64,000 nt of DNA from assembly GCA_023954375.1 (NCBI GenBank), contig JAMLIC010000006.1, positions 146,972 to 210,971 of the forward strand. The letters run 5' to 3'. The stretch comes from Planctomycetota bacterium (GTDB lineage: Bacteria > Planctomycetota > J058). The position numbers were made by a program, and so were the translations under genes. Each line of letters starts with the position of its first letter. The first letter of the stretch is position 1. The notes under the pieces are model-generated. The model was not told the DNA's origin, made no database searches, and was given only the letters and a program-made list of their open reading frames with translations. Below, in pieces: positions 3,195 through 58,215 of the stretch.

Positions 3195-4436
3195 TCAGCC
3201 GAGCACGCGCGCCACGAGGACGATCACCGGGACCCCGGCGGCCAGGACCAGGGCCGTCGAGACCGCGCCGAAGCGCAGGTACTCCACGAAGCCGAGCGTG
3301 TACTGGTCCCTGGCCCCCTCGGCCACGATGATGTTGGCGACGGAGCCGATCAGCGTCAGGTTCCCGGCCACGGTCGAGACGAACGCCAGGAGCGCCCAGC
3401 CGGTCGCCGGCGACCCGCCCAGGGCCTCGAGGTGCGGGCCGAGGAGGAGCACGAGGGGCACGTTCGAGACGAGGTTCGAGCCGACCACGACGAGCGCCGT
3501 GAACAGCGACACGCCGCCCGACCGCTCGAGGTCCAGCGAGGGGGCCGCCGCGCCCCACACCGCCTCCACCACGCCGGTGCCCGCCAGGCCATGCACGACC
3601 ACGAACAGGGCGCAGAAGAAGACGAGGAGCGCCCAGTCCACCCGCGCGAAGGCCTCGCGCGGCTCGGCGCGCTCGAGGACGATGAGCGCCACCGCCCCGG
3701 CGAGCGCCGCGTAGCCCAGGTGCGCGCCGGCGAAGAAGGCCGCGACGACGAGGACGAGCACGACCGACACCCGCCCGAGCATCCCGGGCGGGGCCGCGCG
3801 GGCGGGCGCCGCCTCGAGGGGCGGCATGGCCGGCGGGAGCGCGCGCCCGTAGTAGGCGCGCAGGAGCGCGACGTTGACGAGGAGCCCCACGGCGGCGGCC
3901 GGCCCGCAGCGGAGGAGGAACTCGCCGAACGGCATGCGGCTCAGGCTGCCGACGATCATGTTCTGCGGGTTGCCCACGAGGGTCGCCGCCGAGCCGATGT
4001 TGGCCGACGTCGCCAGGGCGATCAGGTAGGGGCCCATGGGCAGGCGCGCCCGCGCGCAGATGGTCACGACGACCGGCGTCATGAACAGGCACACCGTGTC
4101 GTTGACGAGCACGGCCGAGAGGGCGCCGGCGAGGAGCGAGACGACGACGAGCAGCGCCCAGGGCGTGGCGCACACGCTCAGGACCCGCGTCACCAGCCAG
4201 TCGAAGAACGCCGCCTGGTCCATGTAGGCGGTGATCAGCATCATGCCGAGGAGCAGGACGATCGTGTCGTGGTCGATCGCCTTGAAGCTCTCGGCCGGAG
4301 AGAGCACGCCCGTCGCGACCATGAGCACGGCGCCGAGGAGGGCGCCGGCGGGGCGGCCGATCGGCAGGACGCGCAGGCGGCGCGCCGCGATGAGCACGTA
4401 GGTCAGGCAGAAGATCGCGACGGCCAGCGCGGTCAC
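3195..4436 (-). CDS. ArsB/NhaD-superfamily anion permease (citrate/arsenite transporter-like), ~12 TM
   Basis: 413 aa highly hydrophobic protein with duplicated halves and conserved NP/GNxxN motifs (SANIGSAATLVGNPQNMIV ... GSNLVSNVPLVLLL...GSVANIIVAE). Confidence 0.8.
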   Translation of the reverse strand: MTALAVAIFCLTYVLIAARRLRVLPIGRPAGALLGAVLMVATGVLSPAESFKAIDHDTIVLLLGMMLITAYMDQAAFFDWLVTRVLSVCATPWALLVVVSLLAGALSAVLVNDTVCLFMTPVVVTICARARLPMGPYLIALATSANIGSAATLVGNPQNMIVGSLSRMPFGEFLLRCGPAAAVGLLVNVALLRAYYGRALPPAMPPLEAAPARAAPPGMLGRVSVVLVLVVAAFFAGAHLGYAALAGAVALIVLERAEPREAFARVDWALLVFFCALFVVVHGLAGTGVVEAVWGAAAPSLDLERSGGVSLFTALVVVGSNLVSNVPLVLLLGPHLEALGGSPATGWALLAFVSTVAGNLTLIGSVANIIVAEGARDQYTLGFVEYLRFGAVSTALVLAAGVPVIVLVARVLG

Positions 4437-5740: not shown

Positions 5741-8700
5741 TCAACGAGCGCCGAAGCGCGCCTCCACCGCCTTGGCCTCCTCGACCGCCCACGGCATCAG
5801 CGTCCCGACGAGCGCGCGATCCTCGCGCAGGAGCGGCTCCTCACGGATCCGGTGCGAGAGCGTCAGCCCCCGCTCGCGCGCGCGGGTGAGGGCCGGGTGG
5901 GCCTCGTCCCAGCGCCGGAGCGCGGCGAGCGCCAGCGCCTCGTAGAGCGCGGTCCACGCCCCCTGGCGGGCGCGGTCGGGCGGGCAGAGCGGGCGCAGGT
6001 CGTCGGCGCGGCGGAGGAGCGGGAGGGCGTCGGCCGGCGCGCCGGCGACCTGGAGCAGGCGGCCCAGCACGAGCGACGCGGGCTCGGACATGGGGCGCCG
6101 CCCCCAGGCGTCGCGCGCCGCCAGGAGGCAGCCGGCCAGGCGCGGCGCGTCGAGCGGGATGCGCAGGTCGGCGCAGTAGAGGCCGGCGAGCGCCCGGCGG
6201 AGCGGGCCGTCGCGCGGGACGGGGTGCGACGGGTCGGGCTGCATGTCCTCGAGCAGGAGGAGGATGCTGGCCGCGGCCGCCTCCGCCTCGGTGCGGGCCA
6301 TGCGCCGCAGGGCGAACGAGGGGTCGTTGAGGTAGTCGATCACCGTCGCGGCGTTGCACTCGAAGCCCAGGGCCAGGTCGTCGAACCCCTCGGCCCGCAG
6401 GCGCCCGTAGAGGACGTGGTGGCTGATGTAGGTCGAGACCTGCTGCGGGCTCTCCGCCAGCAGGAGGGCGTAGGCCTCGCGCAGCTCGGGCGTGTCGGCG
6501 AACTGGCCGCCGGCGCCGGCGGTCTGCGAGGCGATCAGGCGGCTGGCTGCGTTCAGGCGCGCGGCGACCGCCTTGAGCGCCGCGACCCGCTCGCTCGCGG
6601 CCCGCGCGAGGTCCGCGCGGCGGAGCGTCGCCGCCTGGCGCTCGAGCCGCTGGTGGAGCGCGGCGCGGGCCTCGAAGGCCAGCCGGTCGCGGTCGGCGCA
6701 GCGCGACGCCAGGTCGAGGACGCGCAGGGCGTCGACCGCATGGCCGCCGGCCTCGAGCGCGTCGACCATGGAGAGGAGCAGGTCGCCGGTCAGCTCGCCG
6801 CGCTCGATCGCGCGCGGGGCGGCGGCGGCGAGGGCCTCGACCGCCGCCTCGGCCGCGCCGATGGCCTCCTCGGCCTGGGCCCGGGCCACGGCGACCGCGG
6901 CCTCGGCGTGGAGCGTGCGCCAGCCGCGAGGGTCGAGCCGCCGCGCGACCTCCAGCGCCGCGGCGGCCGGCTCGGGGCGGCCCAGGGCGGCCTCGGCGCG
7001 GGCCAGGGCGGCGGCCGCGCGCGCGGTCACCGCGCCGTCGCCCGCCAGCCGGGCGGCCAGGCGCAGGGCGTGGGCCGCCCGGGCGAGGAGGGGCGCCGGG
7101 TCGGCGCGCTCGTGCTCGGCGTCGCGCCCGCGGCGGACGGCCGCGGCCGCGAGGTCGGCCTCGCCCCAGGCCACGAGGTCGTCCACGCGCGGCGTCCAGG
7201 GCCCGTCGAGCTGGAGCGCCGTGGCTGACCGGGCCAGGTCCTCGAGGTCGGGCGCGGCCGGCAGGTGGTCGAGGGCGAGGCGCCCGCGCGCCAGCGCCGC
7301 GCTCGCCGCGGCCGCCTCCGGCTCGGGGTCGAGGGCGCGGGCGAGGGCCTCGCCGAGCCGCGCGGCCGTGTCGGGCGCCAGGAGGGGCCGCCCGCCCGGG
7401 AGGCGCAAGGGCGCCGAGGGCCAGGCCACCGGCGCCCCGGTCTGGAGGCGCGCGGCGCGCGCGAAGGCCTCGGCGGCCGAGGCCGGCCAACCGATCGCGA
7501 GGTGCACCTCGCCCTCGAGGAGCGCGGCCTGCGCCTCGACGGTCCTGGGCACGCGCCCGGGCGACGGCGGGTCGGACACGCGCCGCACGCGCTCGAGCGC
7601 CTCGAGCGCCGCCGCGAGCTCCACCCGCCCCCCCGCGCGCAGGAGGTCGTCGACCGCCAGGGCGGCGTCGAGGAGGTCGGCGTCGGGGCCGGCCGGGAGG
7701 CCAGACCGGGCGCGCTCGACCTCGGCGCGCGCCCTCGCGGCCGCCGCGTCGGGCGCCGCGGCCAGGGCGGCCGACGCCAGGCGGACCCGCAGGGCGGGCG
7801 GCAGCGCCGCCGCTCGCCGGGCGCGCTCGGCCGCGTCGCCCTCGCGCAGGGCGCACCAGGCCAGGAGCCAGGCGGCGCGGTGGCCGGGCTCGGCGAGCCA
7901 CGCCTCGGCGTCGTCGCCCGGCGCCGGGCTCGCCGCTGCCAGACGAGCCGCGGCCGCCCGGGCCTCCGCCAGGCGGCCGCCCTGGAACAGGAGCCACGCG
8001 CGCGCCTCCTCGCGCTGGGTGGTCTCGAGGTCCATGGCCCCCGGCGGCGGGGGCACGCGGGCCAGCGCCTCGAGCGCGGCCGCGAGCGCCGCCGGCTCGT
8101 GCGCGCCGGTCCTCATCGCCGCGCGCGCCCGCTGCGTGGCGAGGGCGAGGTCGCGCCGCGCGGCGAGGGCGGCGGCCGCGTCGGCCAGCCGCTCGCGCGC
8201 CGGCCCCTGCGGCGCCGCGACGAGGAGGGCCTCGGCCCGCTGGAGCTCGCGGGCGACGAGGTCGAGCGCCCGCTCACCGGCGTCCGGACGCACCTGCGCG
8301 GCGAGCCCGTCGAGGTCGCTGACGGCCTGCGCCAGCGCCTCGTCCCGCGCGCGGGCCTGGCGCTCGCCGAGCACGACGAGCGCGACCGCCAGCGGGAGCC
8401 CGACGAGCAGCGCGACCGCGCCCGCGACGAGGGCGCCCCGCCGGAGCGTGCGCCGGCGCGCGGCGCGGAGGAAGGTGGACACCGCCGACACGCGCTCGCC
8501 GCGCCGCAGGCGGGCGAGGTCACACGCGAGCGCCGCGCCGTCGGGGTAGCGCCCGTCGGGGTCCTTCTCCAGGCAGCGCGTGATGACCGCCGCCGCCCCG
8601 GGGCTGATGTCGCGGCGCGCCTGGCGCAGGGGCGGCGGCTCGCCGTGGAGGATCGCCGCCACCATGTTGGCGGCGGTCGGCGCGTCGTAGGGCGCCTGGC

Positions 8701-9391
8701 CGGCGAGCGCCTCGTAGAGCACGGAGCCCACGGCGTGGACGTCCGTCCAGGGGCCGATCGGCAGGTCCCCGCTGAACTGCTCCGGCGCCATGTAGAGCGG
8801 GGTGCCGGCCATCTGCCCGGTCCGCGTCAGGCGGTCGAGGTCGGCGGCCAGCGCGATCCCGAAGTCCGCCACCCGCACCCGCCCCGCCCGGTCGAGCATG
8901 ATGTTGGCCGGCTTGACGTCGCGATGGACGATGCCGTGCGCGTGCGCGTGGCCGAGCGCGCGGGCGAGCTGCTCGCCCCAGTCGAGGACGGTCTCCTCGG
9001 GCAGGGGCTCCCGCGCCTCCTGCAGGACCTGCTGCAGCGACTTGCCGTCGACGAACTCGAACAGCAGGTAGGGCGCGCCGGCCGCGGTCGACCCCGAGCC
9101 GAGGACGGGGATGATCCCCGGGTGCTCGAGCCGCGCCACGACCTCCCCCTCGCGCTCGAAGCGGGCCCGGGCCTGGGGGCTGGTGAGGGTCAGGAGCTTG
9201 GCCGCGAGGCGCCGCGGGTCGCCGGGGCGGCGCACCTCGTAGACCGCCCCCATGCCGCCCTTGCCCAGCGTACGCACGACCTCGAAGGGGGCGCCGTGGA
9301 GCCCGGGCGGCGCCCGCTCGCCGCTCGACGAGCCGGGCCCGGGCGCGTCGCTGTCGCCGGGCCAGGTGGACGGACGCGGGCCCTGGTGCAT
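5741..9391 (-). CDS. Ser/Thr protein kinase with long C-terminal alpha-helical (TPR-like) region
   Basis: Kinase subdomains LGKGGMGAVYEV, AAK, HRDVKPANIML, DFG, GTPLYMAPE; start set to internal MHQGP because the 9463 start would overlap the divergent gene start; alternative start 9463. Confidence 0.8.
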   Translation of the reverse strand: MHQGPRPSTWPGDSDAPGPGSSSGERAPPGLHGAPFEVVRTLGKGGMGAVYEVRRPGDPRRLAAKLLTLTSPQARARFEREGEVVARLEHPGIIPVLGSGSTAAGAPYLLFEFVDGKSLQQVLQEAREPLPEETVLDWGEQLARALGHAHAHGIVHRDVKPANIMLDRAGRVRVADFGIALAADLDRLTRTGQMAGTPLYMAPEQFSGDLPIGPWTDVHAVGSVLYEALAGQAPYDAPTAANMVAAILHGEPPPLRQARRDISPGAAAVITRCLEKDPDGRYPDGAALACDLARLRRGERVSAVSTFLRAARRRTLRRGALVAGAVALLVGLPLAVALVVLGERQARARDEALAQAVSDLDGLAAQVRPDAGERALDLVARELQRAEALLVAAPQGPARERLADAAAALAARRDLALATQRARAAMRTGAHEPAALAAALEALARVPPPPGAMDLETTQREEARAWLLFQGGRLAEARAAAARLAAASPAPGDDAEAWLAEPGHRAAWLLAWCALREGDAAERARRAAALPPALRVRLASAALAAAPDAAAARARAEVERARSGLPAGPDADLLDAALAVDDLLRAGGRVELAAALEALERVRRVSDPPSPGRVPRTVEAQAALLEGEVHLAIGWPASAAEAFARAARLQTGAPVAWPSAPLRLPGGRPLLAPDTAARLGEALARALDPEPEAAAASAALARGRLALDHLPAAPDLEDLARSATALQLDGPWTPRVDDLVAWGEADLAAAAVRRGRDAEHERADPAPLLARAAHALRLAARLAGDGAVTARAAAALARAEAALGRPEPAAAALEVARRLDPRGWRTLHAEAAVAVARAQAEEAIGAAEAAVEALAAAAPRAIERGELTGDLLLSMVDALEAGGHAVDALRVLDLASRCADRDRLAFEARAALHQRLERQAATLRRADLARAASERVAALKAVAARLNAASRLIASQTAGAGGQFADTPELREAYALLLAESPQQVSTYISHHVLYGRLRAEGFDDLALGFECNAATVIDYLNDPSFALRRMARTEAEAAAASILLLLEDMQPDPSHPVPRDGPLRRALAGLYCADLRIPLDAPRLAGCLLAARDAWGRRPMSEPASLVLGRLLQVAGAPADALPLLRRADDLRPLCPPDRARQGAWTALYEALALAALRRWDEAHPALTRARERGLTLSHRIREEPLLREDRALVGTLMPWAVEEAKAVEARFGAR

Positions 9392-9461
9392 GACGGGGAG
9401 AGGGTAGCTCGCCCGCGGGCGGCGCGCTCGCTCGGTGGCTATCGTGTGGCGAGAAGGCCCC

Positions 9462-10091
9462 ATGGACGTCCAGGTCCGGCCGCGCGACGCGCCGGCGGCG
9501 CGCTGCCCTTACTGCCACGACGCCCTGAACGACGCGGCCGCGGCGGACGACCAGGTCCGCTGCGACGGCTGCGGCACGTGCCACCACCTCGCCTGCGTGC
9601 TCGAGCTGGGCCGCTGCACGGTCATGGGCTGCGAGCGGTCGCTGATCGTGAGCGGCGTCTTGGCGCCCGCGCCCGAGGACGGCTCGGCCCGCTCGCGCCT
9701 GTGGCGGGCGGTGCAGCGGCAGGTGCGCGCCAAGGCGCGGGCGTTCGTGCTCGAGCACTGCCGGGCGCCGGTCGATGCCACCGAGGACCTGTCCGCGCGC
9801 ATCGAGCTGGCGATCGCGGAGGCGGAGCGGGCCACCGCCGACGGCGCCTGGCCGGAGGCGGCCGACCTGTGGGACGAGGCGGCGCGGCTCGAGGTGCTCG
9901 CGCGGGTGGCCGGGGTCGAGGGCGGCGCGCGGCGGGTGGACCCCGCGCGCGCGGTCGACCTCGCCAAGGACCTGCGAAAGCGGCCCCGGCGGGCCGTGCG
10001 CGCCGCGCTCGTCGTGGTGATGTGGGTGCTGTCCGCGACGGTGGTGGCGATCGTGGCGGCCTTCGCCGGGTCGCTCCTCCGGGGCCCGTGA
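9462..10091 (+). CDS. hypothetical zinc-ribbon protein with C-terminal TM helix
   Basis: MDVQVRPRDAPAARCPYCHDAL...RCDGCGTCHHLACVLELGRCTVMGCERS (Cys4-type ribbons), C-terminal hydrophobic VVVMWVLSATVVAIVAAF; near-100% GC3. Confidence 0.6.
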   Translation: MDVQVRPRDAPAARCPYCHDALNDAAAADDQVRCDGCGTCHHLACVLELGRCTVMGCERSLIVSGVLAPAPEDGSARSRLWRAVQRQVRAKARAFVLEHCRAPVDATEDLSARIELAIAEAERATADGAWPEAADLWDEAARLEVLARVAGVEGGARRVDPARAVDLAKDLRKRPRRAVRAALVVVMWVLSATVVAIVAAFAGSLLRGP

Positions 10092-17550: not shown

Positions 17551-19797
17551 ATGACCGCGAACCGCGCCGAGGCGATCGACCGCCAGTTCCAGGAGCACGT
17601 CCGCGCCCTCGACGCGCGCGCGCCCCGCGACCCCGCGCTGCCCGTCCGCGAGGGCTCGACGCTCACGGGCGCCGCGCTGCTCGAGCTGTTCGAGTCGCAG
17701 CTCATCTGCCGGCTGCTGGACCTCGCCGCGCGCGAGCTGCGCGCCCGCGACCAGGGCTACTACACGATCGGCAGCGCCGGCCACGAGGGCAACGTCGTCG
17801 TGGGGCGGCTGGCCCGCCACACCGACCCGGCGTTCCTCCACTACCGCAGCGGCGCCCTCATGGCCGAGCGCAGCCGCAAGGTCCCGGGGATCGACCCGGT
17901 CCGCGACGCGCTGCTCTCGCTCGTGGCGTCGTCCGACGACCCGATCTCCGGCGGCCGCCACAAGGTGTGGGGGAGCCGCGCCCTGTGGGTGCCGCCGCAG
18001 ACGAGCACGATCGCCTCGCACCTGCCCAAGGCCGTCGGCTGCGCGGTTGCGATCGACCGCGCCCGCCGCCTGAAGCTCGCCAGCCCGGTGCCGGGCGACG
18101 GCATCGCCGTGTGCAGCTTCGGCGACGCCTCGCTCAACCACAGCACCGCCCAGGGCGCGTTCAACGCGGCCGGGTGGATGGCCACGCAGAAGCTGCCCGT
18201 GCCGGTGCTCTTCGTGTGCGAGGACAACGGGATCGGGATCAGCGTCCCGACGCCGGACGGCTGGGTCGAGGCCTCCATGCGCCAGCGGCCCGGGATCGCC
18301 TACGTGCAGGCGGACGGGCTCGACCTCGTCGACGCCTGGGAGGGGGCCTCGCGCGCCGTCGAGACCTGCCGGCGCGAGCGGCGGCCGGTGTTCCTGCACC
18401 TCCGGACCGTGCGCCTCCTGGCCCACGCGGGCAGCGACATCGAGACCGAGTACCACACCCTCGACGAGATCGAGGCGGCCGAGCGTCGCGACCCGCTCCT
18501 GCGCAGCGCGGCGCTCGTCGTCGAGGCCGGCCTCCTCACGCCGGCGCAGGTCCTCGAGCGCTACGAGGCCCTGCGCGCCCGCGTGCGCGCCGGCGCGGCC
18601 GAGGTCGTCATGCGGCCCAAGCTGAAGAGCGCTCGCGAGGTGGTGGCCTCGCTCGCGCCCCTCCACCCGGCCGAGGTCGAGGCCGAGGCGGCCCGCCCGG
18701 CGCCCGCGCCGGCGGAGACCCGCCGCGCGCCCGTGGGCCGCCAGCGGCACCTCGCGGCGATGCTCAACCAGGGGCTGCACGAGGTCCTGCGCAAGTACCC
18801 CGAGGCGCTCCTCTTCGGCGAGGACGTCGCGAAGAAGGGCGGCGTGTACCACGTCACCGCCGGCCTCTGGAAGGAGTTCGGCGCCGGGCGCGTCTTCAAC
18901 ACGCTCCTCGACGAGCAGGCGATCCTCGGCCTGGCGCTCGGCGCCGCGCACCTCGGGCTCCTGCCGCTGCCGGAGATCCAGTACCTCGCCTACGTCCACA
19001 ACGCCGAGGACCAGCTGCGCGGCGAGGCCTGCTCCCTCCAGTTCTTCTCGAACGACCAGTTCCGCAACCCGACCGTCGTGCGGATCGCGTCGTTCGCCTA
19101 CCAGAAGGGCTTCGGGGGCCACTTCCACAACGACAACAGCCTGGCCGTCCTGCGCGACATCCCGGGCCTGATCGTGTGCGCGCCGGCGCGCGGCGACGAC
19201 GCCGTGCGCCTCCTGCGCACCTGCCTGGCGCTGGCGAAGGTCGACGGGCGGGTCGTCGCGTTCTGCGAGCCGATCGCCCTCTACATGACGAAGGACCTGT
19301 ACGAGGACGGCGACGGCCTGTGGCTGTCCGACTTCCCGGCCCCGGGCGAGGCGATCGGCCCGGGCGAGGGCCGCGTCTACCACGAGGACGCGCCGGACCT
19401 GACGATCGTCAGCTACGCCAACGGCCTGTGGCGCTCGCTCCGCGCCGCGCGGACGCTCGAGCGCGAGCACGGGGTCCGCGCGCGCGTCGTCGACCTGCGC
19501 TGGCTCCAGCCGCTGAACCTCGACCTGATCGAGCGCGAGGCCCGCGCCACCGGCCGCCTGCTCGTCGTCGACGAGTGCCGCCGCGCGGGCGGCCTGGGCG
19601 AGGCGATCGTGGCCGGCGTGACCCTGCGCGCGGGGGACGCCGTGCGAGCGGCGCTGGTCGCGGCCGAGGACACCTACATCCCGCTCGGCCCCGCCATGCA
19701 GACCGTGCTCCCGCAGGAGGAGCACGTCGTCGCCGCCGCGCGCGACCTCGTGCGCGAGGCCCCGCCGGCGGCCGTGGTCGCCGGCGTCAAGGCGTGA
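17551..19797 (+). CDS. fused 2-oxoacid dehydrogenase E1 component (alpha+beta subunits in one polypeptide, TPP-dependent)
   Basis: N-terminal half with TPP-binding alpha-subunit motifs (YRSGALMAERS..., GDASLNHSTAQGAFNAAG, LFVCEDNGIGISVPT); C-terminal half beta-subunit transketolase-like (FGEDVAKKGGVYHVTAGL..., DTYIPLGPA); start trimmed to MTANRA. Confidence 0.85.
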   Translation: MTANRAEAIDRQFQEHVRALDARAPRDPALPVREGSTLTGAALLELFESQLICRLLDLAARELRARDQGYYTIGSAGHEGNVVVGRLARHTDPAFLHYRSGALMAERSRKVPGIDPVRDALLSLVASSDDPISGGRHKVWGSRALWVPPQTSTIASHLPKAVGCAVAIDRARRLKLASPVPGDGIAVCSFGDASLNHSTAQGAFNAAGWMATQKLPVPVLFVCEDNGIGISVPTPDGWVEASMRQRPGIAYVQADGLDLVDAWEGASRAVETCRRERRPVFLHLRTVRLLAHAGSDIETEYHTLDEIEAAERRDPLLRSAALVVEAGLLTPAQVLERYEALRARVRAGAAEVVMRPKLKSAREVVASLAPLHPAEVEAEAARPAPAPAETRRAPVGRQRHLAAMLNQGLHEVLRKYPEALLFGEDVAKKGGVYHVTAGLWKEFGAGRVFNTLLDEQAILGLALGAAHLGLLPLPEIQYLAYVHNAEDQLRGEACSLQFFSNDQFRNPTVVRIASFAYQKGFGGHFHNDNSLAVLRDIPGLIVCAPARGDDAVRLLRTCLALAKVDGRVVAFCEPIALYMTKDLYEDGDGLWLSDFPAPGEAIGPGEGRVYHEDAPDLTIVSYANGLWRSLRAARTLEREHGVRARVVDLRWLQPLNLDLIEREARATGRLLVVDECRRAGGLGEAIVAGVTLRAGDAVRAALVAAEDTYIPLGPAMQTVLPQEEHVVAAARDLVREAPPAAVVAGVKA

Positions 19798-22453: not shown

Positions 22454-23335
22454 GTGCGGGTCTGCGTCGTCGTCAACCCCGCCGCCGGCAACGCCGACGC
22501 GCTCGACCGCCTCGCCGCGCGCCGCCCCGTCACCGTCTGGCGGGCGCCCGACGCGCGCGCCACGGCGACGCTCGCCGCCCGGGCCGCCCGCGAGGGCTTC
22601 GACCGCGTCGTCGCCGCCGGCGGCGACGGCACGCTCGCCCGCGTGGTCGAGGGCCTGGGCGCCCTCCGCGACCGGGTGGTCGTCGGCCTCGTGCCGCTCG
22701 GCACCGGCAACGACTTCGCCCGCACCGTGGGCCTCCCGCCCGACCCGCTCGACGCGCTGGACCTCGTCCTGCGCGGCGGCGCCGAGCGGCGCCTGGACCT
22801 GATCGAGGTCGCCGTCGCCGGCGCCGGGCGGCGCCTCTGCGTCAACGCCGCGCAGGGCGGCTTCTCGGGGCAGGTCGACGAGGGCCTCGACGGAGCGACC
22901 AAGGCCGCCTGGGGGCCGCTGGCGTACGTGCGCGCGGCCGTCGCCACCCTGCCGGCCCTGACCGCCTACGAGGTCGACCTCGTCCTGGACGGCGCGCCGC
23001 GGGAGCGCGTGGAGGCGATCAACGTCGTCGTCGCCAACGGGCGCACGGTCGGCGGGGGCGTGCGGGTCGCCCCGGAGGCCGACCCGGCCGACGGCCTGCT
23101 CGACGTGGTGGTCGTCCGCGCCGGGACGGCGCTCGGGCTCGCCGGCGTGGGCGCGAGGCTGGTCGCGGGCAACGTCCTCGAGAGCGACCTCGTGCTCCAC
23201 CGGCGCGCGCGGCGCGTGGCCCTCCGGGCGCGCCCGCCCATGCCCTTCAACGCCGACGGCGACCTCCTGCCGGCGGGCGACCTCGACCTCTCCGTCCTGC
23301 CCGGGGCGCTACGGATGGTCTGCGGAGAGATGTGA
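22454..23335 (+). CDS. diacylglycerol kinase catalytic domain family lipid kinase (second YegS/DagK paralog)
   Basis: GTG start; VCVVVNPAAGN..., GGDGT (VVAAGGDGTLARVV), GTGNDFAR. Confidence 0.8.
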   Translation: MRVCVVVNPAAGNADALDRLAARRPVTVWRAPDARATATLAARAAREGFDRVVAAGGDGTLARVVEGLGALRDRVVVGLVPLGTGNDFARTVGLPPDPLDALDLVLRGGAERRLDLIEVAVAGAGRRLCVNAAQGGFSGQVDEGLDGATKAAWGPLAYVRAAVATLPALTAYEVDLVLDGAPRERVEAINVVVANGRTVGGGVRVAPEADPADGLLDVVVVRAGTALGLAGVGARLVAGNVLESDLVLHRRARRVALRARPPMPFNADGDLLPAGDLDLSVLPGALRMVCGEM

Positions 23336-23340
23336 CGTGA

Positions 23341-23351
23341 GCGTCAGGCGA
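23341..23351. repeat. right arm of 11-bp perfect inverted repeat bracketing the permuted tRNA (TCGCCTGACGC in minus orientation)
   Basis: plus-strand GCGTCAGGCGA at 23341-23351 is the exact reverse complement of 23471-23481. Confidence 0.9.
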
Positions 23352-23375
23352 CGAGGGGTGGAGAGACCTGTTTCG

Positions 23376-23455
23376 CGCTCTATCCGATTGAGCTACCCCG
23401 CCACGGAACGGCGGGGGCGGGGCTCGAACCCGCAACCTCGTCCTTCGTAGGGATG
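23376..23455 (-). tRNA. circularly permuted tRNA-Arg(ACG): 3' half (pos 27-73; 23455..23409) + 6-nt linker TTCCGT + 5' half (pos 1-26; 23402..23376)
   Basis: Minus strand reads CATCC-CTACGAA-GGACG-AGGTT-GCGGG-TTCGAGC-CCCGC-CCCCGCC-G | TTCCGT | GGCGGGG-TA-GCTC-AATCGGATA-GAGC-G. Reordered, this gives a canonical 73-nt tRNA: 7-bp acceptor GGCGGGG/CCCCGCC, U8, A14, G18G19, R26, U33, anticodon ACG, A37, G53-T54-T55-C56-R57-A58, C61. One A:C mismatch in the anticodon stem; no encoded CCA. Confidence 0.5.
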
Positions 23456-23470
23456 GAGTCCCTCCTGCAT

Positions 23471-23481
23471 TCGCCTGACGC
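23471..23481. repeat. left arm of 11-bp inverted repeat bracketing the permuted tRNA
   Basis: plus-strand TCGCCTGACGC at 23471-23481; in the minus-strand transcript this leader GCGUCAGGCGA can pair with the trailer UCGCCUGACGC (plus a further GAGGG/CCCUC segment), juxtaposing tRNA positions 26 and 27. Confidence 0.9.
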
Positions 23482-23510
23482 CCGACCGACCCCTCCCGGC
23501 GCCGCCCCTG

Positions 23511-24770
23511 TCATCCGCCGGCCGCGGCCAGCGCGACCGCCAGCGCCGCCTCGCGCGTCAGGGCGCGCCCCTCGAGCTGCGCCTCCTCGGCGGCCGCGAG
23601 CGCCGGGCCGAAGTGCTTGCCCGGCTTCAGGCCGGCCGCCTGCAGGTCGGCGCCGCGCACGAGGGGCGGCGCGTCGAGGCGGGCCGCGGTCGGGTCGGCG
23701 GCGAAGGCCCGCGCGCGGAGGACGAGGTAGCGGTGCGGCTCGAGGTCGCCGTCGTCGGCCAGGAGCACGGCCCGCAGCAGGTCGGCGAACGGCCACCGGC
23801 TCACCTCGGCCCGGCGCAGGAAGCGCTTCTGCTCGGCGACGCAGAGGTCCCAAAGGCGGCGCGCGACGTCGAGCGCCTCGAGCGCGGCGCGCACCCGCTC
23901 GCGCTGCGCGTTGCTGGCGCGGAGCCGCGTGAGGGCCGCCTCCGCCGTGGCCGGCCCGGCGAGGTGGAGCGCCGCCGCCCAGGCCGCGTCGACCGGCGCG
24001 TCGCCGGGCAAGGCGGCGAGCGCCCGGAGGGCCCGCGGCAGGTCGACCCGCGCCTCGGGCAGGACGTGCGCGAGCACGCCGACCTCCTCGCAGAGGGCCA
24101 GCCCGCGCGCCCGCGTCGGCGGCGCGAGCACCTTCTGCAGCTCGGTGTGGACGCGCTCGGGCGAGACGCACGCGGGCACCTCGGGCGCGTGCGCCCGGCC
24201 GGCGGCCACCGTGGCCGGGTCGAGGCGGAAGCCCAGCGCCGCGGCGAAGCGCGGCGCGCGGAGGATCCGCAGGCGGTCCTCCAGGAAGCGCGCGTCGGCG
24301 TCGCCGATCGCCCGCACCACCCCGCGGACCAGGTCCTCGCGGCCGCCCACGAAGTCGAGGACCTCGTCGCCGATCGGGTCGTAGAACAGCCCGTTGATCG
24401 TGAAGTCGCGGCGCCGCGCGTCCTCCTCGGGCCCCGTGAAGCGCACCGCCGTCGGCCGCCGACCGTCCTCGTACTCCGCATCGACGCGGAACGTGGCGAC
24501 CTCGACCTCGACGGAGACCCCCTCGCGCGCCCGCTCGCGCACGCGGACGACGCCGAACTGCACCCCGACCGGGATCGAGCGGCGGAAGGCCCCCTGGACC
24601 TCCTCGGGCGTGGCGCTCGTGGCCACGTCGATGTCGCTCGCCTCGCGCCCGAGCAGGCGGTCGCGCACCGAGCCGCCCGCCCACAGCGCCTGGTGGCCGC
24701 GCTCGCGCAGCCGCCGGACCACCTGCAGGGCGGCCGCGCGGACGTCGGCAGGGTCTACGCGGGACGCCAC
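23511..24770 (-). CDS. cca: CCA tRNA nucleotidyltransferase (poly(A) polymerase head-domain family)
   Basis: WAGGSVRDRLLGREASDIDVATSATPEEV (GGxVRD...DxD), RDFTINGLFYDP, C-terminal probable HD-like region. Confidence 0.8.
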   Translation of the reverse strand: MASRVDPADVRAAALQVVRRLRERGHQALWAGGSVRDRLLGREASDIDVATSATPEEVQGAFRRSIPVGVQFGVVRVRERAREGVSVEVEVATFRVDAEYEDGRRPTAVRFTGPEEDARRRDFTINGLFYDPIGDEVLDFVGGREDLVRGVVRAIGDADARFLEDRLRILRAPRFAAALGFRLDPATVAAGRAHAPEVPACVSPERVHTELQKVLAPPTRARGLALCEEVGVLAHVLPEARVDLPRALRALAALPGDAPVDAAWAAALHLAGPATAEAALTRLRASNAQRERVRAALEALDVARRLWDLCVAEQKRFLRRAEVSRWPFADLLRAVLLADDGDLEPHRYLVLRARAFAADPTAARLDAPPLVRGADLQAAGLKPGKHFGPALAAAEEAQLEGRALTREAALAVALAAAGG

Positions 24771-24881
24771 CGCGGTCCTCCTCCGCCCCGAGCTTACCCG
24801 CTCACGGCGGCCGTCGCTTCGTCGTGAGGTCCACGTCCGGGGGCGGGACCTTGAGGCACGCAGACCGCGCCGTGAGCGCGC

Positions 24882-25985
24882 TCAGCGGGGGGTGACGCGC
24901 ACGCCGTCGCGGTCGATCCGGACCTCGAGGCGGGGCGACGCGGTCACGAGCCCCAGCTCCTCGGCGGTCGGCACCTCGCCCGGGCGCGCCTGCTGCCAGC
25001 GGTGGAAGCGCTCCTCGAGCGCGCGCTGGAGGCGCCGCGCCTCGACGCCCGGCGCGATCACCCGGCCCTCCTCCAGGCGATAGCCCACACCGAGCGGGTC
25101 CTCGACCCCGTGCTCGCGCAGGACCTCCAGCGCGTCGGGGAGCCGGCCGCCGCCGCGCTCGTGATGGCGCAGGGCGGCGTCGATGAACCGCCACAGCGCG
25201 TCCAGGTCGCCCGGCGGGGCGCCGGCCTGCTGGGCGACGTCGTCTGCGACCTGCTGCAGCGCCTGCGCGATGAGCGCCGCGCGCGTCTCGGTCAGGCGCC
25301 GCTCCGCCTGCGCGCGCATGGCCGGCTCGCCGTGGCCGGCCGCGTCGAGCCAGCGCTGCTCGTCGTAGCGCAGGGCCTCCAGGGGCGAGAGCCCGCGCGT
25401 GGCGAGGCGGCGGGCGAAGGCCTCGAGCTCGGGGGGCGCGCCGGGCAGCCCCACCGCGCGCTGCAGGAGCTCGCCCCCGCGGCGCACGTGCTCGACCCGC
25501 TCGTCCTCGGGCTTCCCGAGCCCGTCGAGGAGCTCGATCGAGGCCAGCTCCACGAAGAGCAGCCAGCGCCCCGGGTGGCCCACGGGGACGCCGCGCGCGG
25601 GGTCGATGCCCCGCTCCAGAAAAGCGCGCGCCAGGTCGGCGCGGTCGGCCACCGAGTAGAAGTAGACCGAGGCCCGCCGGTACGCCCCGGCGTCCATGGG
25701 GTCGAGCGCGAGGATCGCGTCGTACAGCCGCGAGATGTGCTCGTGGCGCAGGCGGTCCATCCCCTCGAGCCAGCGCATGAGGAAGTTGGTCGCGCGGATC
25801 TCCAGCAGGTTCGCCGCCGTCTGCGGGTGGCCGAACGTCAGGACGCGGAGGATGGCGCGCGGCGGCAGCACCTCGAGCACGTCCGGGGGCGGCGTGCGCC
25901 GCGCGTCGAGGCGGCCCTGCACGGGGAAGAGCAGGGCGGCGCCGGCGAGCGCGACGAGGGCCGGGGCGCGCCGGGCGAGGGCCAC
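24882..25985 (-). CDS. hypothetical secreted protein
   Basis: Signal peptide MALARRAPALVALAGAALLFPVQG; protein-like composition, high GC3. Confidence 0.6.
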   Translation of the reverse strand: MALARRAPALVALAGAALLFPVQGRLDARRTPPPDVLEVLPPRAILRVLTFGHPQTAANLLEIRATNFLMRWLEGMDRLRHEHISRLYDAILALDPMDAGAYRRASVYFYSVADRADLARAFLERGIDPARGVPVGHPGRWLLFVELASIELLDGLGKPEDERVEHVRRGGELLQRAVGLPGAPPELEAFARRLATRGLSPLEALRYDEQRWLDAAGHGEPAMRAQAERRLTETRAALIAQALQQVADDVAQQAGAPPGDLDALWRFIDAALRHHERGGGRLPDALEVLREHGVEDPLGVGYRLEEGRVIAPGVEARRLQRALEERFHRWQQARPGEVPTAEELGLVTASPRLEVRIDRDGVRVTPR

Positions 25986-27818: not shown

Positions 27819-28841
27819 GTGGACGTCAGGCCCATCGACCTCGGGCGCGGGGTGCGCTTCGACCCGCCGTTCGTGCTCGCCCCCATGGAGGGCGTGACGC
27901 ACCGGGTGTTCCGGGACCTCCTGCTCGACGCGGGCGGGCCGGGGGCGGCGTGGACGGAGTTCCTCCGCGTGTCGCAGGTGCCGCTGCGGACGGCGGCGAT
28001 CCGCCGCGAGCTCGGCCCGCCGCGCGCCGACGTGCCCGTGGGCGTCCAGCTCATGGGGACGGACCCCGGCGTGGTCGCCGAGACGGCGCGCAACGCCGTC
28101 ACCGCCGGGGCGCCGATGATCGACCTCAACTTCGGCTGCCCGGCGCCGGTGGTGTTCAACAAGTGCGCCGGCTCGGCCATGCTGGACCACCCCGAGCGGC
28201 TGCGCGCGCTGGTCGCCGCCGTGGTCGCGGCCGTGGACGTGCCGGTCACGGCGAAGGTCCGCCTCGGCGTGCGCGACGCCTCGCGCTTCGAGGAGGTCGT
28301 GCGGGCGGTCGACGAGGCGGGCGCCGCCGCGCTGACCGTCCACGCCCGCACGCGCGCCGACCAGTACGCCCACCCGGCCCGCTGGGAGCACCTGGCCCGC
28401 GCGCGCGAGTGGACGCGCCGGCCGCTCATCGGCAACGGCGACGTGCTCGGCTGGGACGACGCCGCGCGCATGATGCGCGAGTGCAAGGTCGACGGCGTCA
28501 TGGTGGGGCGCGGGGCCCTGCGCGACCCGTGGGTGCTCGCGCGCCTGCGCGCCCGGGCGCGCGGCGCCCCGGAGCCCGAGGTCGGCCCGGCGCAGGTCCT
28601 CGGCTTCCACGCCCGCTACCGCGACGACATGCTCCGCGGCGGCGCCAGCGAGCGCGGGCTCCTCGGGCAGCTCAAGCAGCTCTATCGGCGGCTCGAGGTG
28701 GGGCTGCCGATCGACGCCGCCGCCCGCGCCGGTCTCCTGCGCGCCGCGACGCTGGTCGAGCTCGAGGCGCGGGTCGAGGCGCTGGCGCGGGCCTGCGATG
28801 AGTCGGCGGCGCCGGGGCTCACCCCTCCAGCGTCGGCGTGA
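27819..28841 (+). CDS. tRNA-dihydrouridine synthase (Dus family)
   Basis: FVLAPMEGVTHRVFRDL..., DLNFGCPAPVVFNKCAGSAML, TVHARTRADQY...NGDV. Confidence 0.85.
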   Translation: MDVRPIDLGRGVRFDPPFVLAPMEGVTHRVFRDLLLDAGGPGAAWTEFLRVSQVPLRTAAIRRELGPPRADVPVGVQLMGTDPGVVAETARNAVTAGAPMIDLNFGCPAPVVFNKCAGSAMLDHPERLRALVAAVVAAVDVPVTAKVRLGVRDASRFEEVVRAVDEAGAAALTVHARTRADQYAHPARWEHLARAREWTRRPLIGNGDVLGWDDAARMMRECKVDGVMVGRGALRDPWVLARLRARARGAPEPEVGPAQVLGFHARYRDDMLRGGASERGLLGQLKQLYRRLEVGLPIDAAARAGLLRAATLVELEARVEALARACDESAAPGLTPPASA

Positions 28842-43181: not shown

Positions 43182-46100
43182 TCACCGGGAGAGGTACTGC
43201 TTGAAGCGCGGCGCCTCGCGCACCGGCGCGAAGCAGGCGTCCTTCGCGAACGTGTAGCCGGCGACGTCGTAGAAGTCGGGGCGGCCGGAGGCCTCGAGCA
43301 GGCGCACCGCGAGGTCGGCGTCGCCGGCGCGGGCGGCGAGCCGCGCCTGCTGGAACACGGCGTAGGGCGCGCCGGGGTCGAGGGCCAGGGCCCGGCGCAG
43401 GAGCGGGGCGGCCTCGGCGGCCTCGTCCGCCTCGATCGCCGCGTCGGCGGCGAGCGCCAGGAGGGACGGGGAGCCGGGCGAGAGGTCGACCGCCCGCAGG
43501 GCCGCGTCGGCCGCGGCGAGCGCGTCGCCCGGGCGGGCGCCGGTCGAGTGGTGGCGCGCGAGCAGGTAGAGGGCCTCGGCGGCGAACAGCGCCGCGTCGT
43601 CGGGCCGCGCCGGGCGCTCCCGCGCGACCACGTCGAGGACCGTCTCGCCCTCGAGCGAGACCTCCACGTGGCCGAAGGCGTAGGTCCAGTAGGAGACGCG
43701 GTAGGCGGGCATGCCGCGCGCGACGAGCAGGTAGCGGCCGGCGGCGAGGACCGACTGGCCCGGGCGGGCGCTGTTGTTCTCGTACTGCGCCACCCTGAGC
43801 AGGTACTCGGCGTCGTGCTCGAGGTGGCGCCGCCACAGGTCCAGCGCGTCGCGCGCCTCGACGAGGCGCGTGTCGCCCGGGACCGCGGCGCGGCGCACGG
43901 CGGCCTCGTGGCGGCGCGCGGCCTCGGTCTCGGCGCGGGCGCGCTCGGCCGCGGCGACGGTCGCGTCGTCGCCGCGCGCGGCGGCCACCTGCGCCAGGGC
44001 GCGCAGGCTCGGCAGGTGGCGCGGCTCGGCCTCGAGCGCCGCGCGGAGCAGGTCGAGCGCCGCGTCGACCCGGCCCGCCTCGACGAGGGCGACGGCGGCG
44101 CGCAGGCGCTCGTCGGGGTCGAGGCCGGCGAGGAGGGGGAGGTCGGCGGCGTCGAGGTCGCCCGGGGCGCCGCCGGCGAGGCGCGCGCGCAGGTGGGCGC
44201 GGCGGACCTCGACGAGCTGCGGGTGGCCGCGGGCCAGGCGGTCCAGCGCGGGCGCGTCGCCGTCGAGGGCCGCCTGGTCCAGGCGCGCGGGGACGTGCTC
44301 GGGGTCGAGGGCGAGCAGGCGCGCGAGGAGGCGCGCGCGGCGGGCCGGGTCCCCCTGGGCGCGGCGGACCTCGACCCACAGGCGCTCGACGAGCGCGCGC
44401 CCGGGGTCGTCGTGCCGCGCGGAGGCCACCGGGACCGGGCAGGGTCGCGGGCGGAGGAGCGGGGCGCGGCGGAGCGTGAAGGCCGCGCGGTCGGCGGGCG
44501 CGGCGGCGTCGCCGCGGGCCTGGCGGAGCGCGAGCGCGCGCAGGAGGTCGTGCCGCGCGGGGTGGTCGTCGGGGAGCGCGGCGGCGGCGGCCTGCGCCTC
44601 GTCGGGGCGGCCGAGGGCCAGGAGCGCCTGCGCCGCGACCGCCCGCCCCTCGAGCGTCCGCGCGTCGACCGGCCCGAGGGCGGCGAGGGCCTCGGCCGCC
44701 TTGCCGGCGCGGAGGAGCGCCCAGGCGACGGCGGCCTCGCCCTCGGGGCCGGGCGCGAGGGCCTGCGCCGCCGCGGCCGCCTGGACGGCGGCCTCGGGGC
44801 GCCCGCGGGCGACCTCGAGGCGGGCGGCCCAGCGCGGCGGCGGCGCCGACGTGCGGGGTCGCGTTGCAGGCGGCGGCGGCGGCGGTCACGCGCCGCAGGG
44901 CCCGCGCCGCCTCCTCGTCGGGGCCGCCGAGGAGCCAGGCGGCGAGGGCGGCGTCGAGGCGCGCCGCGGCGTCGGCGTGCGCCCCGCGCAGGTCCTCGAG
45001 CGCCTGCGACGGCCGTCCGCGGCGCAGGTGGAGGCGGCCCCGCTCGGGCGCGCGCGTGGGGTCGATCCGCACGGCCTCGTCGAGGGCGGCGCGGGCGCCG
45101 TGCGGGTCGCCGCGGGCCTCGAGCGCCGCGGCGCGCGCGAGGTGCCATGGCGCCTCGCCGCCGGCCGGGTGCGCGGCGAGGAGCGCCAGCGCCTCGTCGG
45201 GGCGCCCGAGGCGGACCTCGCAGCGGGCGAGCGCGGCCACGAGCGCGGCGTCCCTCGCGCCCGCCTCGACCTGGCCGCGGAGCGCCTCGGCGGCCGCGGC
45301 GAGGTCGTCGGCCTCGAGCAGGGCGCGCGCGCGCAGGGCGGTGAGGGCCGCCGTCCGGGCCGGCCGGGCCTCGAGCGCCTGCGCGGCGAGGCGCGGCCGG
45401 TGGAGCGCCAGGAGCGTCTCGGCGGCCTGCGCCAGGAGGGGCTCGGCCGCCGCCGCGTCGGCGAGGTCGCGCGCCGCTCCCGCGGCGAGGACGGCCAGGC
45501 GGCAGGCCTCGGCGCCGGTGGCGGGGTCGGCGGCGAGCGCGCGGGCGAGGAGGACGAGCGACGTGGCGTCGGGCTCGAGGGCCAGACGCTCGCGGGCCAG
45601 GGCGCGGGCCAGGCCGGGGTCGCCGGCGAGGTGGGCGGCCGCGAGGGCCGCCAGCACCTCGACGCGGCGCGCCCGCGCGCCGGAGCTCTGGTAGCGCGCC
45701 TCGACCTCGGCGAGGAGCGCCGGCGGCCCCTCGCGCGCGCGGGCGACGTGGGCGGCGGCGACCCGGTGGGCCTCGGCCTCCTTCGTCAGCGCCTCGACGC
45801 TCCGCCCGGTGCGGGCGCGTCGCGCCTCGCCCAGCGCCGCGTCGAGCGCCGTGAGGGCGGCCTTCGCGGCCGCGGGGTCGGCGGTCGGCGGGCCGCGCCC
45901 GGCGGCAGCGGCGAGGCCCGCGCCCACGCCGGCGCCGCCGAGCACGGCGACCAGGAGCGCCGCGGCGAGGCGCCAGGCGCGGCGGCCGCGCGACCGCGGG
46001 CGGACGCGCGCGCGCCCGCCGGCGAGGTGCGCCTCGAGGGCCCGGGCGAAGGCGCGCGCGTCGGGCCGGTCGGCCGGGTCCTTCTCCAGGGCGGCGAGGG

Positions 46101-47325
46101 CCAGCTCGCCGAGGTCGCGCGGGACGTCGGCGGCGCGGTCCCAGGGGCGCGGCGGCGTCTCGTCGACGATCTGCTTGAGGAGGAGCGCGCCCGTGCCCGC
46201 GTAGGGGTACTCGCCCGTGAGCAGCTGGAAGAGCATGACGCCGAGCGCGTGGACGTCGGCGGCCGGCCCCGGGTCGGCGCAGCGCACCTGCTCGGGGGCC
46301 ATGTACTGCGGCGTGCCGAGGGCCACGCCGGTGCGCGTGAGCTGCGACTCGTGGTCGAGGATCCGCGCCAGGCCGAAGTCGGTGACCTTCGGCTCGAGGT
46401 CCTGGTCGAGGAGGACGTTGCCCGGCTTGAGGTCGCGGTGCACGACCCCCTCGTCGTGAGCGTGCGCGATCGCGCGCGCCACCTTGGCGAGGATCCCGAG
46501 CGCCTTGCGCCGCTCGAGCCCGCGCGCGATCGCCTGGCGCAGGTCGCCGCCCGGGGCGAAGGGCATGATGATGTAGGGCTGCCCGTCGGGCGCCTCGCCG
46601 GTCTCGAGCACGCCGATCACGTGCGGGTGGGCGAGGCGCTCGAGGGCGGCCGCCTCGCGGCGGAACCGCTGCCGGTGGCGCGGCGACACGTCGAGGAGCA
46701 GCTTGATCGCCACGAGCTCGCCCGTGGCCAGGCGGCGCGCGCGGTGGACGATCCCCATGCCGCCGCGGCCGAGCTCCGCCTCGAGCTCCCAGCCGGGGAG
46801 GTGGACGCGCGGGCCGAGGAGGCCGGCGAGGATCGACGTCGGCTGCTGGCCCGCCGGGCGCACGGGCTCGTCGCTCTCGAGGACGCCGGCGGACGGCGGG
46901 GTCGGGATCACCTCGTCGGCGGTGACGGTGGCGCGGAGCCCCGGCCGGAGCGGCTCGTCGCTCTCGAGGACGCCGCCGGACGGCGGCGTGGCGATCACCT
47001 CGTCGGTGGCGACCGTGGTGCGGAACCCCGGCCGGGGCGCCTCGGCGCGCTCGGGGCCGGCGGAGGGGGGCGTGGGGATCACCTCGTCGGTGGCGACCGT
47101 CGTGGCGAACCCGGGCACGCGGTCCGCGCGCAGCTCCGCCGAGGCCAGGTCCGCCTCGAGCTGCCGCCGCGCCTCGGCCGTGAGCGCCCCCAGGTCGACG
47201 AGCGCCCCCGCGAGGCCGCCGGGCAGCCCGCGGTAGCGCTGCGCCAGCTCCCGCGCCCGCGCCTCGGACACGAGCCCGCGGGACACGGCCAGGCTGAGGA
47301 ACGCGTGGTCCCGGGGGTCGAGCAC
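43182..47325 (-). CDS. Ser/Thr protein kinase with TPR-rich C-terminal region; one apparent frameshift in a (GCC)n tract at ~44830-44890
   Basis: GTG start 47325; N-terminal 3x ~28-aa repeats; kinase motifs LGRGGMGIVHRA, HRDLKPGNVLL, DFGLAR, GTPQYMAPE; frame F0 becomes junk after ...RRVTAAAAACNATPHV, while frame F2 (the 43182..44429 track ORF extended upstream: LEVARGRPEAAVQAAAAAQALAP...) stays TPR-like to the stop at 43182. Confidence 0.7.
46855..47110. repeat. intragenic ~84-bp tandem repeat x3 encoding R.GF.TTVATDEVIPTPPSAGVLESDEP units at the kinase N-terminus
   Basis: Repeats visible at both DNA and protein level. Confidence 0.7.
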
Positions 47326-47445
47326 GGGTCAAAGATAGCGGGGCGGGGTCGGGGCGGGCGAGCGCTCCGCCCATGCTCGGGCGCCCGCGCGGGGCCGCGG
47401 CTACGCTGCCGGCATGAGCGACGCGCGCCGAGGGCGGGGGTAGCG

Positions 47446-51646: not shown

Positions 51647-51681
51647 CCGGGGGTAGACTGCCCCCGGCCACGGAGGCCCCG

Positions 51682-58149: not shown

Positions 58150-58215
58150 GGGCGAAGGATGACAGCGGCCGTGCGCCCTCGCCCGCCGCCGGCGCGGGCG
58201 CTATCGTCGCCGAGC

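Follow-up and report, generated by a model that had tools for sequence, protein, structure and literature searches.

The DNA described here, which we call the window, is a 64-kb stretch of contig JAMLIC010000006.1 from a metagenome-assembled genome (MAG) of Planctomycetota, with a G+C content of 77.6%. An intergenic slot of 175 nt separates cca, which is predicted to encode a class II tRNA nucleotidyltransferase, from a convergent gene of the YegS family, and this slot is nearly filled by a single element enclosed in one hairpin. An earlier note on this DNA had seen in the element a permuted tRNA that encodes no CCA, and had found its place directly behind the gene of the CCA-adding enzyme suggestive. 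Judged by its sequence, its structure and its protein-binding motif, the element encodes a bacterial Y RNA of the YrlA class (Rfam family RF02553). A second copy lies at the nearest genome locus (L001), which comes from assembly JAHBXY01, a Planctomycetota MAG whose cca is 88% identical to that of the window. The features of the locus are listed below in window coordinates.

23341..23481, minus strand: the complete hairpin element of the YrlA type, delimited by the closing helix; positions 23342-23477 are covered by the Rfam match and 23343-23480 by the core that is conserved in L001.
23481-23471 and 23351-23341, minus strand: the closing helix of 11 bp, GCGUCAGGCGA (5' strand) pairing with UCGCCUGACGC (3' strand), from reading of the sequence and the minimum free energy fold.
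23475-23468, minus strand: GGCGAAUG, an instance of the GNCGAAN0-1G motif, the putative Ro60/Rsr binding site, in the 5' strand of the closing helix.
Between the closing helix and the T arm on the 5' side, minus strand: the 5' strand of a second helix of about 9 bp, then a short variable hairpin, from reading of the sequence.
23433-23417, minus strand: the T arm, GCGGG-UUCGAGC-CCCGC, from the sequence, the Rfam match and the covariation analysis.
23416-23396, minus strand: an acceptor-like closed hairpin, CCCCGCC-GUUCCGU-GGCGGGG, with its strands at 23416-23410 and 23402-23396 and its loop at 23409-23403.
23393-23377, minus strand: the D arm, GCUC-AAUCGGAUA-GAGC, preceded by UA, from the sequence, the Rfam match and the covariation analysis.
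23482..23510, minus strand: the spacer of 29 nt between the cca stop codon and the Y RNA, from reading of the sequence.
23511..24770, minus strand: cca, class II tRNA nucleotidyltransferase of 419 residues, with its stop codon TGA at 23513-23511, directly upstream of the Y RNA.
22454..23335, plus strand: the convergent gene of the YegS/diacylglycerol kinase family (Pfam PF00781, PF19279), which stops 5 nt short of the Y RNA's 3' end, closes the intergenic slot on its downstream side and is also present in L001.

Several observations of the earlier note hold at this level of detail. The inverted-repeat leader to which it referred belongs to the 11-bp closing stem that encloses the element, cca does end just upstream on the same strand (29 nt lie between its stop codon and the stem's first base, where the note had given 30 bp), and no CCA is encoded, the 3' strand of the acceptor-like stem running into G and then UUCC. 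That stem has 7 Watson-Crick pairs, a discriminator-like G and a U at the position equivalent to -1 of a tRNA. The order of the parts is permuted, with the tRNA-like 3' half (the T arm and the 3' strand of the acceptor) encoded ahead of the 5' half, and the D arm is followed by the 3' strands of both outer helices, which run to 23341 on the minus strand. Opposite GGCGAAUG stands the complementary UCGCC at 23351-23347 (minus strand). All of the helices were recovered in the minimum free energy fold (-72 kcal/mol, z = -1.96).

The identification with YrlA comes from several comparisons. Using cmscan in E-value mode, we matched the element to the full RF02553 model (positions 1-114) with 66.8 bits (E 2.8e-15, 401 nt); over the whole window the same match had an E-value of 4.5e-13 and was the only Rfam match at E ≤ 0.05. 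An nhmmer profile built from 75 YrlAs also matched the element (E 2.7e-23). The terminal helix of the window copy contains the GNCGAAN0-1G motif (GGCGAAUG), which is retained in L001. The modules stand in the order T arm, closed acceptor-like hairpin and D arm, and in a covariation analysis of 75 rows the window sequence forms every helix.

The sequences for this analysis came from metagenome contigs scanned with the pattern GGCGAATGC..GGGTTCGA..GGTAGCTCA, which matched 93 stretches, 80 of which were returned as loci. The resulting alignment (A2) has 75 rows, namely 73 distinct metagenomic YrlAs and the copies of the window and L001, and the window sequence aligns with the 73 through every conserved block. 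The Ro60 motif is invariant in this alignment, but GGCGAATGC was part of the search pattern for 73 of the 75 rows, and only the matches of the window and L001 copies are informative. We wrote a five-helix structure of 31 pairs from the window sequence and tested it on all 75 sequences. Standard pairs filled 93.5% of the cells, compared with 40-52% when the 3' partners were slid by one to three columns. Compensatory double changes were observed at 15 of the 31 pairs, and none of 500 column shuffles reached any of the observed measures. The T-arm helix is paired in 100% of the sequences and the closing helix (helix 1) in 89.7%, with covariation at both of its outer pairs, while five of the seven pairs of the acceptor-like stem covary. 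RNAalifold independently found the T, acceptor-like, D and anticodon-like helices.

This arrangement of parts is familiar from characterized YrlAs. Their terminal helix carries the GNCGAAN0-1G motif, the putative binding site of the Ro60 orthologue Rsr, and in the remainder the RNA imitates a tRNA's T, acceptor and D arms (PMC4201824). In its crystal structure, the Salmonella YrlA domain has a true L-shaped tRNA fold in which the acceptor stem is closed by a loop, and most YrlAs have been likened to circularly permuted tRNAs whose acceptor stem is closed; the RNAs function without a free CCA end (bioRxiv 10.1101/312249). The tRNA-shaped module is the effector-binding domain in the YrlAs that have been characterized. 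The YrlA of Salmonella Typhimurium (PDB 6CU1) follows the same plan as the element of the window: a terminal helix with the Ro60 motif, a helix resembling an anticodon stem, a variable hairpin, a T arm, a closed acceptor and a D arm.

Since most YrlAs look like circularly permuted tRNAs whose acceptor stems are closed, a "permuted tRNA without CCA" is therefore a known architecture. No free CCA end is required, because the RNA's own ends sit at the place of the anticodon stem and the acceptor stem is closed by a loop. The element thus remains what the earlier note saw in its outline, a look-alike of a circularly permuted tRNA; by its full-length match to RF02553, it is not a tRNA gene. The further idea of a tRNA that must regenerate its 3' end did not survive, since the acceptor of a YrlA is normally closed and the RNA functions without a free CCA.

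Standard annotation tools did not reveal the element. With the default gathering thresholds, an Rfam scan of the window came back empty, and ARAGORN called neither a tRNA nor a transfer-messenger RNA (tmRNA) at the element. On the L001 copy, ARAGORN called a tRNA-Arg(acg) at 6663-6730 (plus strand), a mis-call that covers the closing helix and T arm of the YrlA, and Y RNAs can thus be mis-annotated as tRNAs. The only ARAGORN call in the window, a tRNA-Ser(cga) at 17556-17649 (minus strand), looks spurious: the opposite strand carries the 5' end of a dehydrogenase E1 gene in the overlapping region, the call has no T-loop consensus, and no Rfam tRNA match was found at 17556-17649 even at E ≤ 0.05. 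In genomes with a very high G+C content, YrlA is thus missed or mis-called both by Rfam at its default thresholds and by ARAGORN.

We compared the window with L001, which has the same layout: cca, a spacer of 30 nt, the YrlA, a convergent YegS-like gene and CinA. The identities between the two loci are as follows.

YrlA core of 138 nt: 96.4% identical (5 differences).
cca: 87% identical in DNA, 76% at third codon positions.
Flanks: 60% identical in the spacer, whose length is kept, and 50% in the 3' flank.

Identity falls sharply at both ends of the closing helix. All five differences are in unpaired positions (the loops of the T arm, the acceptor and the D arm, and one single-stranded junction), and neither copy has lost the Ro60-binding motif or either helix strand. 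Given a divergence of about 22% at the synonymous sites of cca, five or fewer changes in 138 nt would be expected with a probability of about 1e-9. Judged by this pattern of substitution, the Y RNA is under strong purifying selection and is functional in both genomes. A chance inverted repeat is ruled out by the RF02553 match (E 2.8e-15) together with the 96.4% identity of the core against its faster-diverging surroundings.

The genomic context of the element is unusual for a YrlA. According to Chen et al. (2014, PMC4201824), YrlA lies near rsr, within about 4 kb and on the same strand, and our metagenomic sample agrees. Among the metagenomic YrlAs with at least 2.5 kb of sequence on both sides, all 21 were preceded on the same strand by a Ro60-like gene at a distance of 12-758 nt, and rtcB lay downstream in 18 of the 21. 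Across the 80 YrlA loci, we found a Ro60-like protein (vWA_Ro60) in 54, RtcB in 45 and RtcA in 33. In the window, the slot normally held by rsr, directly upstream on the same strand, is occupied by cca.

The product of this gene matches Pfam PF01743 (PolyA_pol head, E 8e-33), PF12627 (RNA-binding) and PF13735 (tRNA_NucTran2_2). Its best NCBIfam model is PRK13299, CCA tRNA nucleotidyltransferase, with 223.8 bits (under the cutoff of 290), and PcnB scores 180.4 bits, also under its cutoff. The best match in the PDB is 1MIV, the CCA-adding enzyme of Bacillus stearothermophilus (E 5e-50), compared with an E-value of 1.5e-34 for a poly(A) polymerase, and an identical protein (P0001) bears the NCBI name CCA tRNA nucleotidyltransferase. 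By these similarities, the neighboring gene is predicted to encode a class II CCA-adding enzyme, nearer to characterized CCA-adding enzymes than to poly(A) polymerases. It is preceded by genes for an ABC ATPase, an ABC-2 permease and a conserved protein of about 365 residues, and sometimes a kinase. The same upstream order persists in relatives with 74, 66 and 56% identical cca, which are without the Y RNA, so that cca is the lineage's ordinary housekeeping orthologue.

Is the pairing of YrlA and cca conserved? We searched 86 cca-centered loci and the window (975 kb) with a strict structural descriptor, with single-sequence nhmmer and with the nhmmer profile from the 75 YrlAs of A2, and all three agreed that a YrlA stands beside cca only in the window and L001. 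None was found behind cca in relatives at 79, 77, 74 and 66% cca identity, nor in 79 further cca loci. The room between cca and the next gene is 80-106 nt in L081 (74%) and L083-85 (77%) and 69 nt in L082 (66%). In L086 (79%), an unrelated repeat array follows cca instead of the Y RNA; the array, at 2150-2593, consists of imperfect GC-rich palindromic repeats with units such as CGCGACAGGTCGCG and GGCATGCCGCC. Weak partial profile matches in other cca loci were rejected as YrlA and taken for ordinary tRNA genes. Two such partial matches to the T arm and D arm lie just downstream of cca on the opposite strand, at about 3209-3312 (minus strand) in L018 and about 7485-7568 (minus strand) in L035. 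Matches of this type occur in some loci of Verrucomicrobiota and Terriglobales and resemble ordinary tRNA genes, and adjacency of cca and a tRNA would thus arise without a Y RNA.

Seen from the side of the RNA, the picture is the same: no cca homologue was found in any of the 80 metagenomic YrlA loci. The synteny check therefore went largely against the suggestive linkage of the earlier note, which is kept in L001 alone. From these comparisons, the placement of the Y RNA behind cca is probably a recent, lineage-specific event in one small clade and not a conserved functional pairing.

Several points weigh against reading the element as a typical Rsr-bound YrlA. Its score of 66.8 bits is 2.2 below the Rfam gathering score of 69, so that a default Rfam scan misses it. 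We detected no rsr (no TROVE or vWA_Ro60 protein), rtcB or rtcA in the window, using Pfam on about 50 large open reading frames (ORFs) and tblastn with 7 Rsr queries (best E 0.2); this negative covers 64 kb of a source contig of 272,689 bp and says nothing on the rest of the genome. The L001 locus is likewise without rsr, rtcB and rtcA. The element therefore departs from the rule that rsr is found on the strand of YrlA no more than about 4 kb away, although this is a criterion of context and not a property of the RNA. Finally, transcription with cca, the ends of the RNA and binding of Rsr are steps that we infer.

Taking all of this together, we consider it quite likely that the element is a YrlA Y RNA gene whose Rsr partner is encoded elsewhere in the genome and whose placement behind cca is recent and lineage-specific. 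By analogy with rsr-yrlA operons, the RNA would most likely form the 3' portion of a transcript that covers cca or begins within it, and trimming would then leave the part bounded by the stem. Co-transcription with cca is plausible, with a gap of 29 nt on the same strand. In M. smegmatis, the rsr locus yields one precursor from which the Y RNAs are processed (PMC4201824), and some metagenomic YrlAs lie as near as 12 nt behind rsr. A consensus scan for promoters and terminators over 23100-25100 found none, a scan that is uninformative at 78% G+C in a phylum whose promoters are poorly known. The RNA most likely binds Rsr through the conserved helix, and would work with an Rsr protein encoded elsewhere in the genome. 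The tRNA-like domain may then serve as an effector-binding module, as in the complex of Rsr, Y RNA and PNPase found in Deinococcus and Salmonella (PMC4201824; bioRxiv 10.1101/312249), and for this function a free CCA end would be unneeded.

A functional coupling between the Y RNA and its neighbor nonetheless deserves to be weighed. RNase P would open the hairpin on the 5' side of G23402, the trailer UUCCGU would be trimmed, and the neighboring enzyme would add CCA, with enzyme and substrate co-expressed. The exact 7 Watson-Crick pairs of the acceptor, the discriminator-like G and the U at -1 fit such a cleavage, and a 7-bp acceptor stem is what the RNase P cleavage of the M. smegmatis YrlA has been ascribed to, a cleavage after which the 5' half is nibbled and CCA is added in vivo (Chen et al. 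2014, PMC4201824). Among our 75 YrlAs, 10 encode NCCA exactly at the tRNA position, directly behind a 7-nt 3' strand of the acceptor, 9 of them among the 33 with all of the first seven acceptor pairs, and CCA is nearly absent at other offsets of the acceptor loops. Opening of the acceptor thus seems real in a subset, and the pattern suggests that opening by RNase P to expose a CCA end is perhaps wider than M. smegmatis, although several of the ten are close relatives and the independent lineages are fewer. The ten are L095, L096, L100, L103, L107, L112, L114, L119, L122 and L161, with hairpins such as CCGGAUC-ACCA-UCGAC-GGUCCGG. Because the window copy encodes no CCA, it would, if cleaved, depend on a CCA-adding enzyme, and the Y RNA sits 29 nt behind the gene of one, on the same strand, in a position kept in L001. 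Such a substrate relationship is plausible, but it would hold wherever in the genome cca was encoded, adjacency is not evidence for it, and selection for adjacency finds no support in the comparisons between genomes. The adjacency itself is restricted to two close genomes and is missing in the next relatives, at all other cca loci and at all 80 metagenomic YrlA loci. The enzyme is a housekeeping orthologue that is needed anyway, a full CCA being encoded in 0 of the 3 tRNA genes examined at planctomycete loci. Moreover, two wobble pairs can lengthen the acceptor-like stem to 9 bp, a length at which RNase P might be blocked, and most YrlAs are uncleaved (bioRxiv 10.1101/312249). We therefore regard a coupling with cca as unlikely.

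The absence of rsr, rtcB and rtcA from the 64 kb also raises the idea of an orphan, split from rsr-rtcBA by rearrangement or gene loss and now either a decaying relic or an RNA with a new, Rsr-independent role, for example as a tRNA-like 3' end that stabilizes the cca mRNA. Between the stop codon of cca and the convergent gene, the whole slot is taken up by the element, and the consensus scan found no terminator-like site after it. Decay is unlikely with 5 changes in 138 nt, all unpaired, and with the motif and helix strands intact in both genomes, and the missing rsr is uninformative on the rest of the genome; we give the orphan, in either form, little credence. A more speculative combination would have the YrlA uncoupled from rsr-rtcBA, fused to the 3' end of the cca unit, cut by RNase P and dependent on the CCA-adding enzyme, acting as a nicked tRNA-like cap to shield either the cca mRNA or the Y RNA itself, or else sensing CCA-adding capacity or serving as a decoy for it, perhaps without Ro60. 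This too is a long shot. Most improbable of all is that the element is a genuine tRNA gene in circularly permuted form, as in Cyanidioschyzon merolae, or a two-piece tmRNA, whose product circularization or cleavage would turn into a decoding or ribosome-rescue RNA. The order of the tRNA-like halves, the canonical T arm, D arm and 7-bp acceptor stem, and the false tRNA-Arg on part of the L001 copy could be read in this way. The RNA, however, has no anticodon loop, where the joined ends of a permuted tRNA would give one of 7 nt on a 5-bp stem: the position of the anticodon stem runs into the 9-bp and then the 11-bp helix, which bears the Ro60 motif, with internal loops between them. It has no bulge-helix-bulge motif, and for the splicing endonuclease there is no reported bacterial equivalent (bioRxiv 10.1101/312249). 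ARAGORN, which detects permuted tmRNA, called neither a tmRNA nor a tag reading frame, and no Rfam match to tmRNA was found in the window at E ≤ 0.05. With homology to YrlA over its full length, no anticodon loop and no tag frame, we consider both the permuted tRNA gene and the two-piece tmRNA ruled out.

The permuted order of a tRNA-like domain is known in bacteria from the two-piece tmRNA of Alphaproteobacteria and some cyanobacteria. Unlike that RNA, the window RNA has no tag reading frame and no pseudoknots, and has a full D arm. The mascRNA of MALAT1, an example of a tRNA-like 3'-end element, differs in its unpermuted order and in an RNase P cut that releases the upstream RNA, whereas the putative RNase P site of the window RNA lies in the middle of the element. 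In the permuted tRNA genes of C. merolae, too, the 3' half comes first and the 5' half after it (Soma et al. 2007, as summarized in bioRxiv 10.1101/312249). Their precursors form a real anticodon stem-loop once circularized and use the eukaryotic/archaeal splicing machinery; the window RNA is bacterial and has a Ro60-binding helix instead. A parallel to the acceptor is found in the M. smegmatis YrlA (PMC4201824), which also has a 7-bp acceptor stem. There, CA alone is added; here, where cleavage is hypothetical, the loop GUUCCGU would mean that a longer trailer is removed and a full CCA added. Within the RF02553 family, the window copy stands out by falling 2 bits under the gathering score, by adjoining cca rather than rsr/rtcBA and by its host, a member of the Planctomycetota with 78% G+C.

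The wider neighborhood holds a few further features. The protein of about 365 residues has no Pfam match and is encoded at 24882-25985 (minus strand) in the window, at 4418-5527 in L081 and at 4148-5233 in L082; in this clade its gene always follows that of the ABC-2 permease and precedes cca, or the kinase gene where one stands ahead of cca. A dihydrouridine synthase (Dus) gene at 27819-28841 (plus strand) lies about 4.3 kb from the Y RNA and is divergent from the string of ABC-transporter genes and cca. DusA modifies the Salmonella YrlA, yet the neighborhood of Dus, ABC transporter and cca is also found in L081, which has no Y RNA, and the proximity is probably a coincidence. The window also contains four very large Ser/Thr protein kinase genes, at 5741-9463 (minus strand), 43774-49656 (plus strand), 49690-52224 (plus strand) and 56491-62190 (plus strand), with products of up to about 1,960 residues, one of them with long TPR arrays. 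In places, long antisense ORFs with high third-position G+C overlap these kinases, so that gene calling from ORFs is unreliable here.

What these findings offer is chiefly a correction of annotation: the RNA that looked like a striking "permuted tRNA without CCA" belongs to a Y RNA family whose description dates from 2014. The RNA family itself is known, and the member described here is a YrlA unlinked from rsr, in an atypical context, in a phylum and at a G+C content where default tools miss it. As a planctomycete YrlA, it is an exception to the rule of rsr adjacency. Its points of interest are the exact 7-bp acceptor stem and the role of the tRNA-like domain of YrlA. If the genome lacks Ro60, or if the RNA is opened by RNase P and repaired with CCA, the adjacency to cca would gain biological meaning, and either outcome would help in approaching what the tRNA-like domain does in bacterial Y RNAs.

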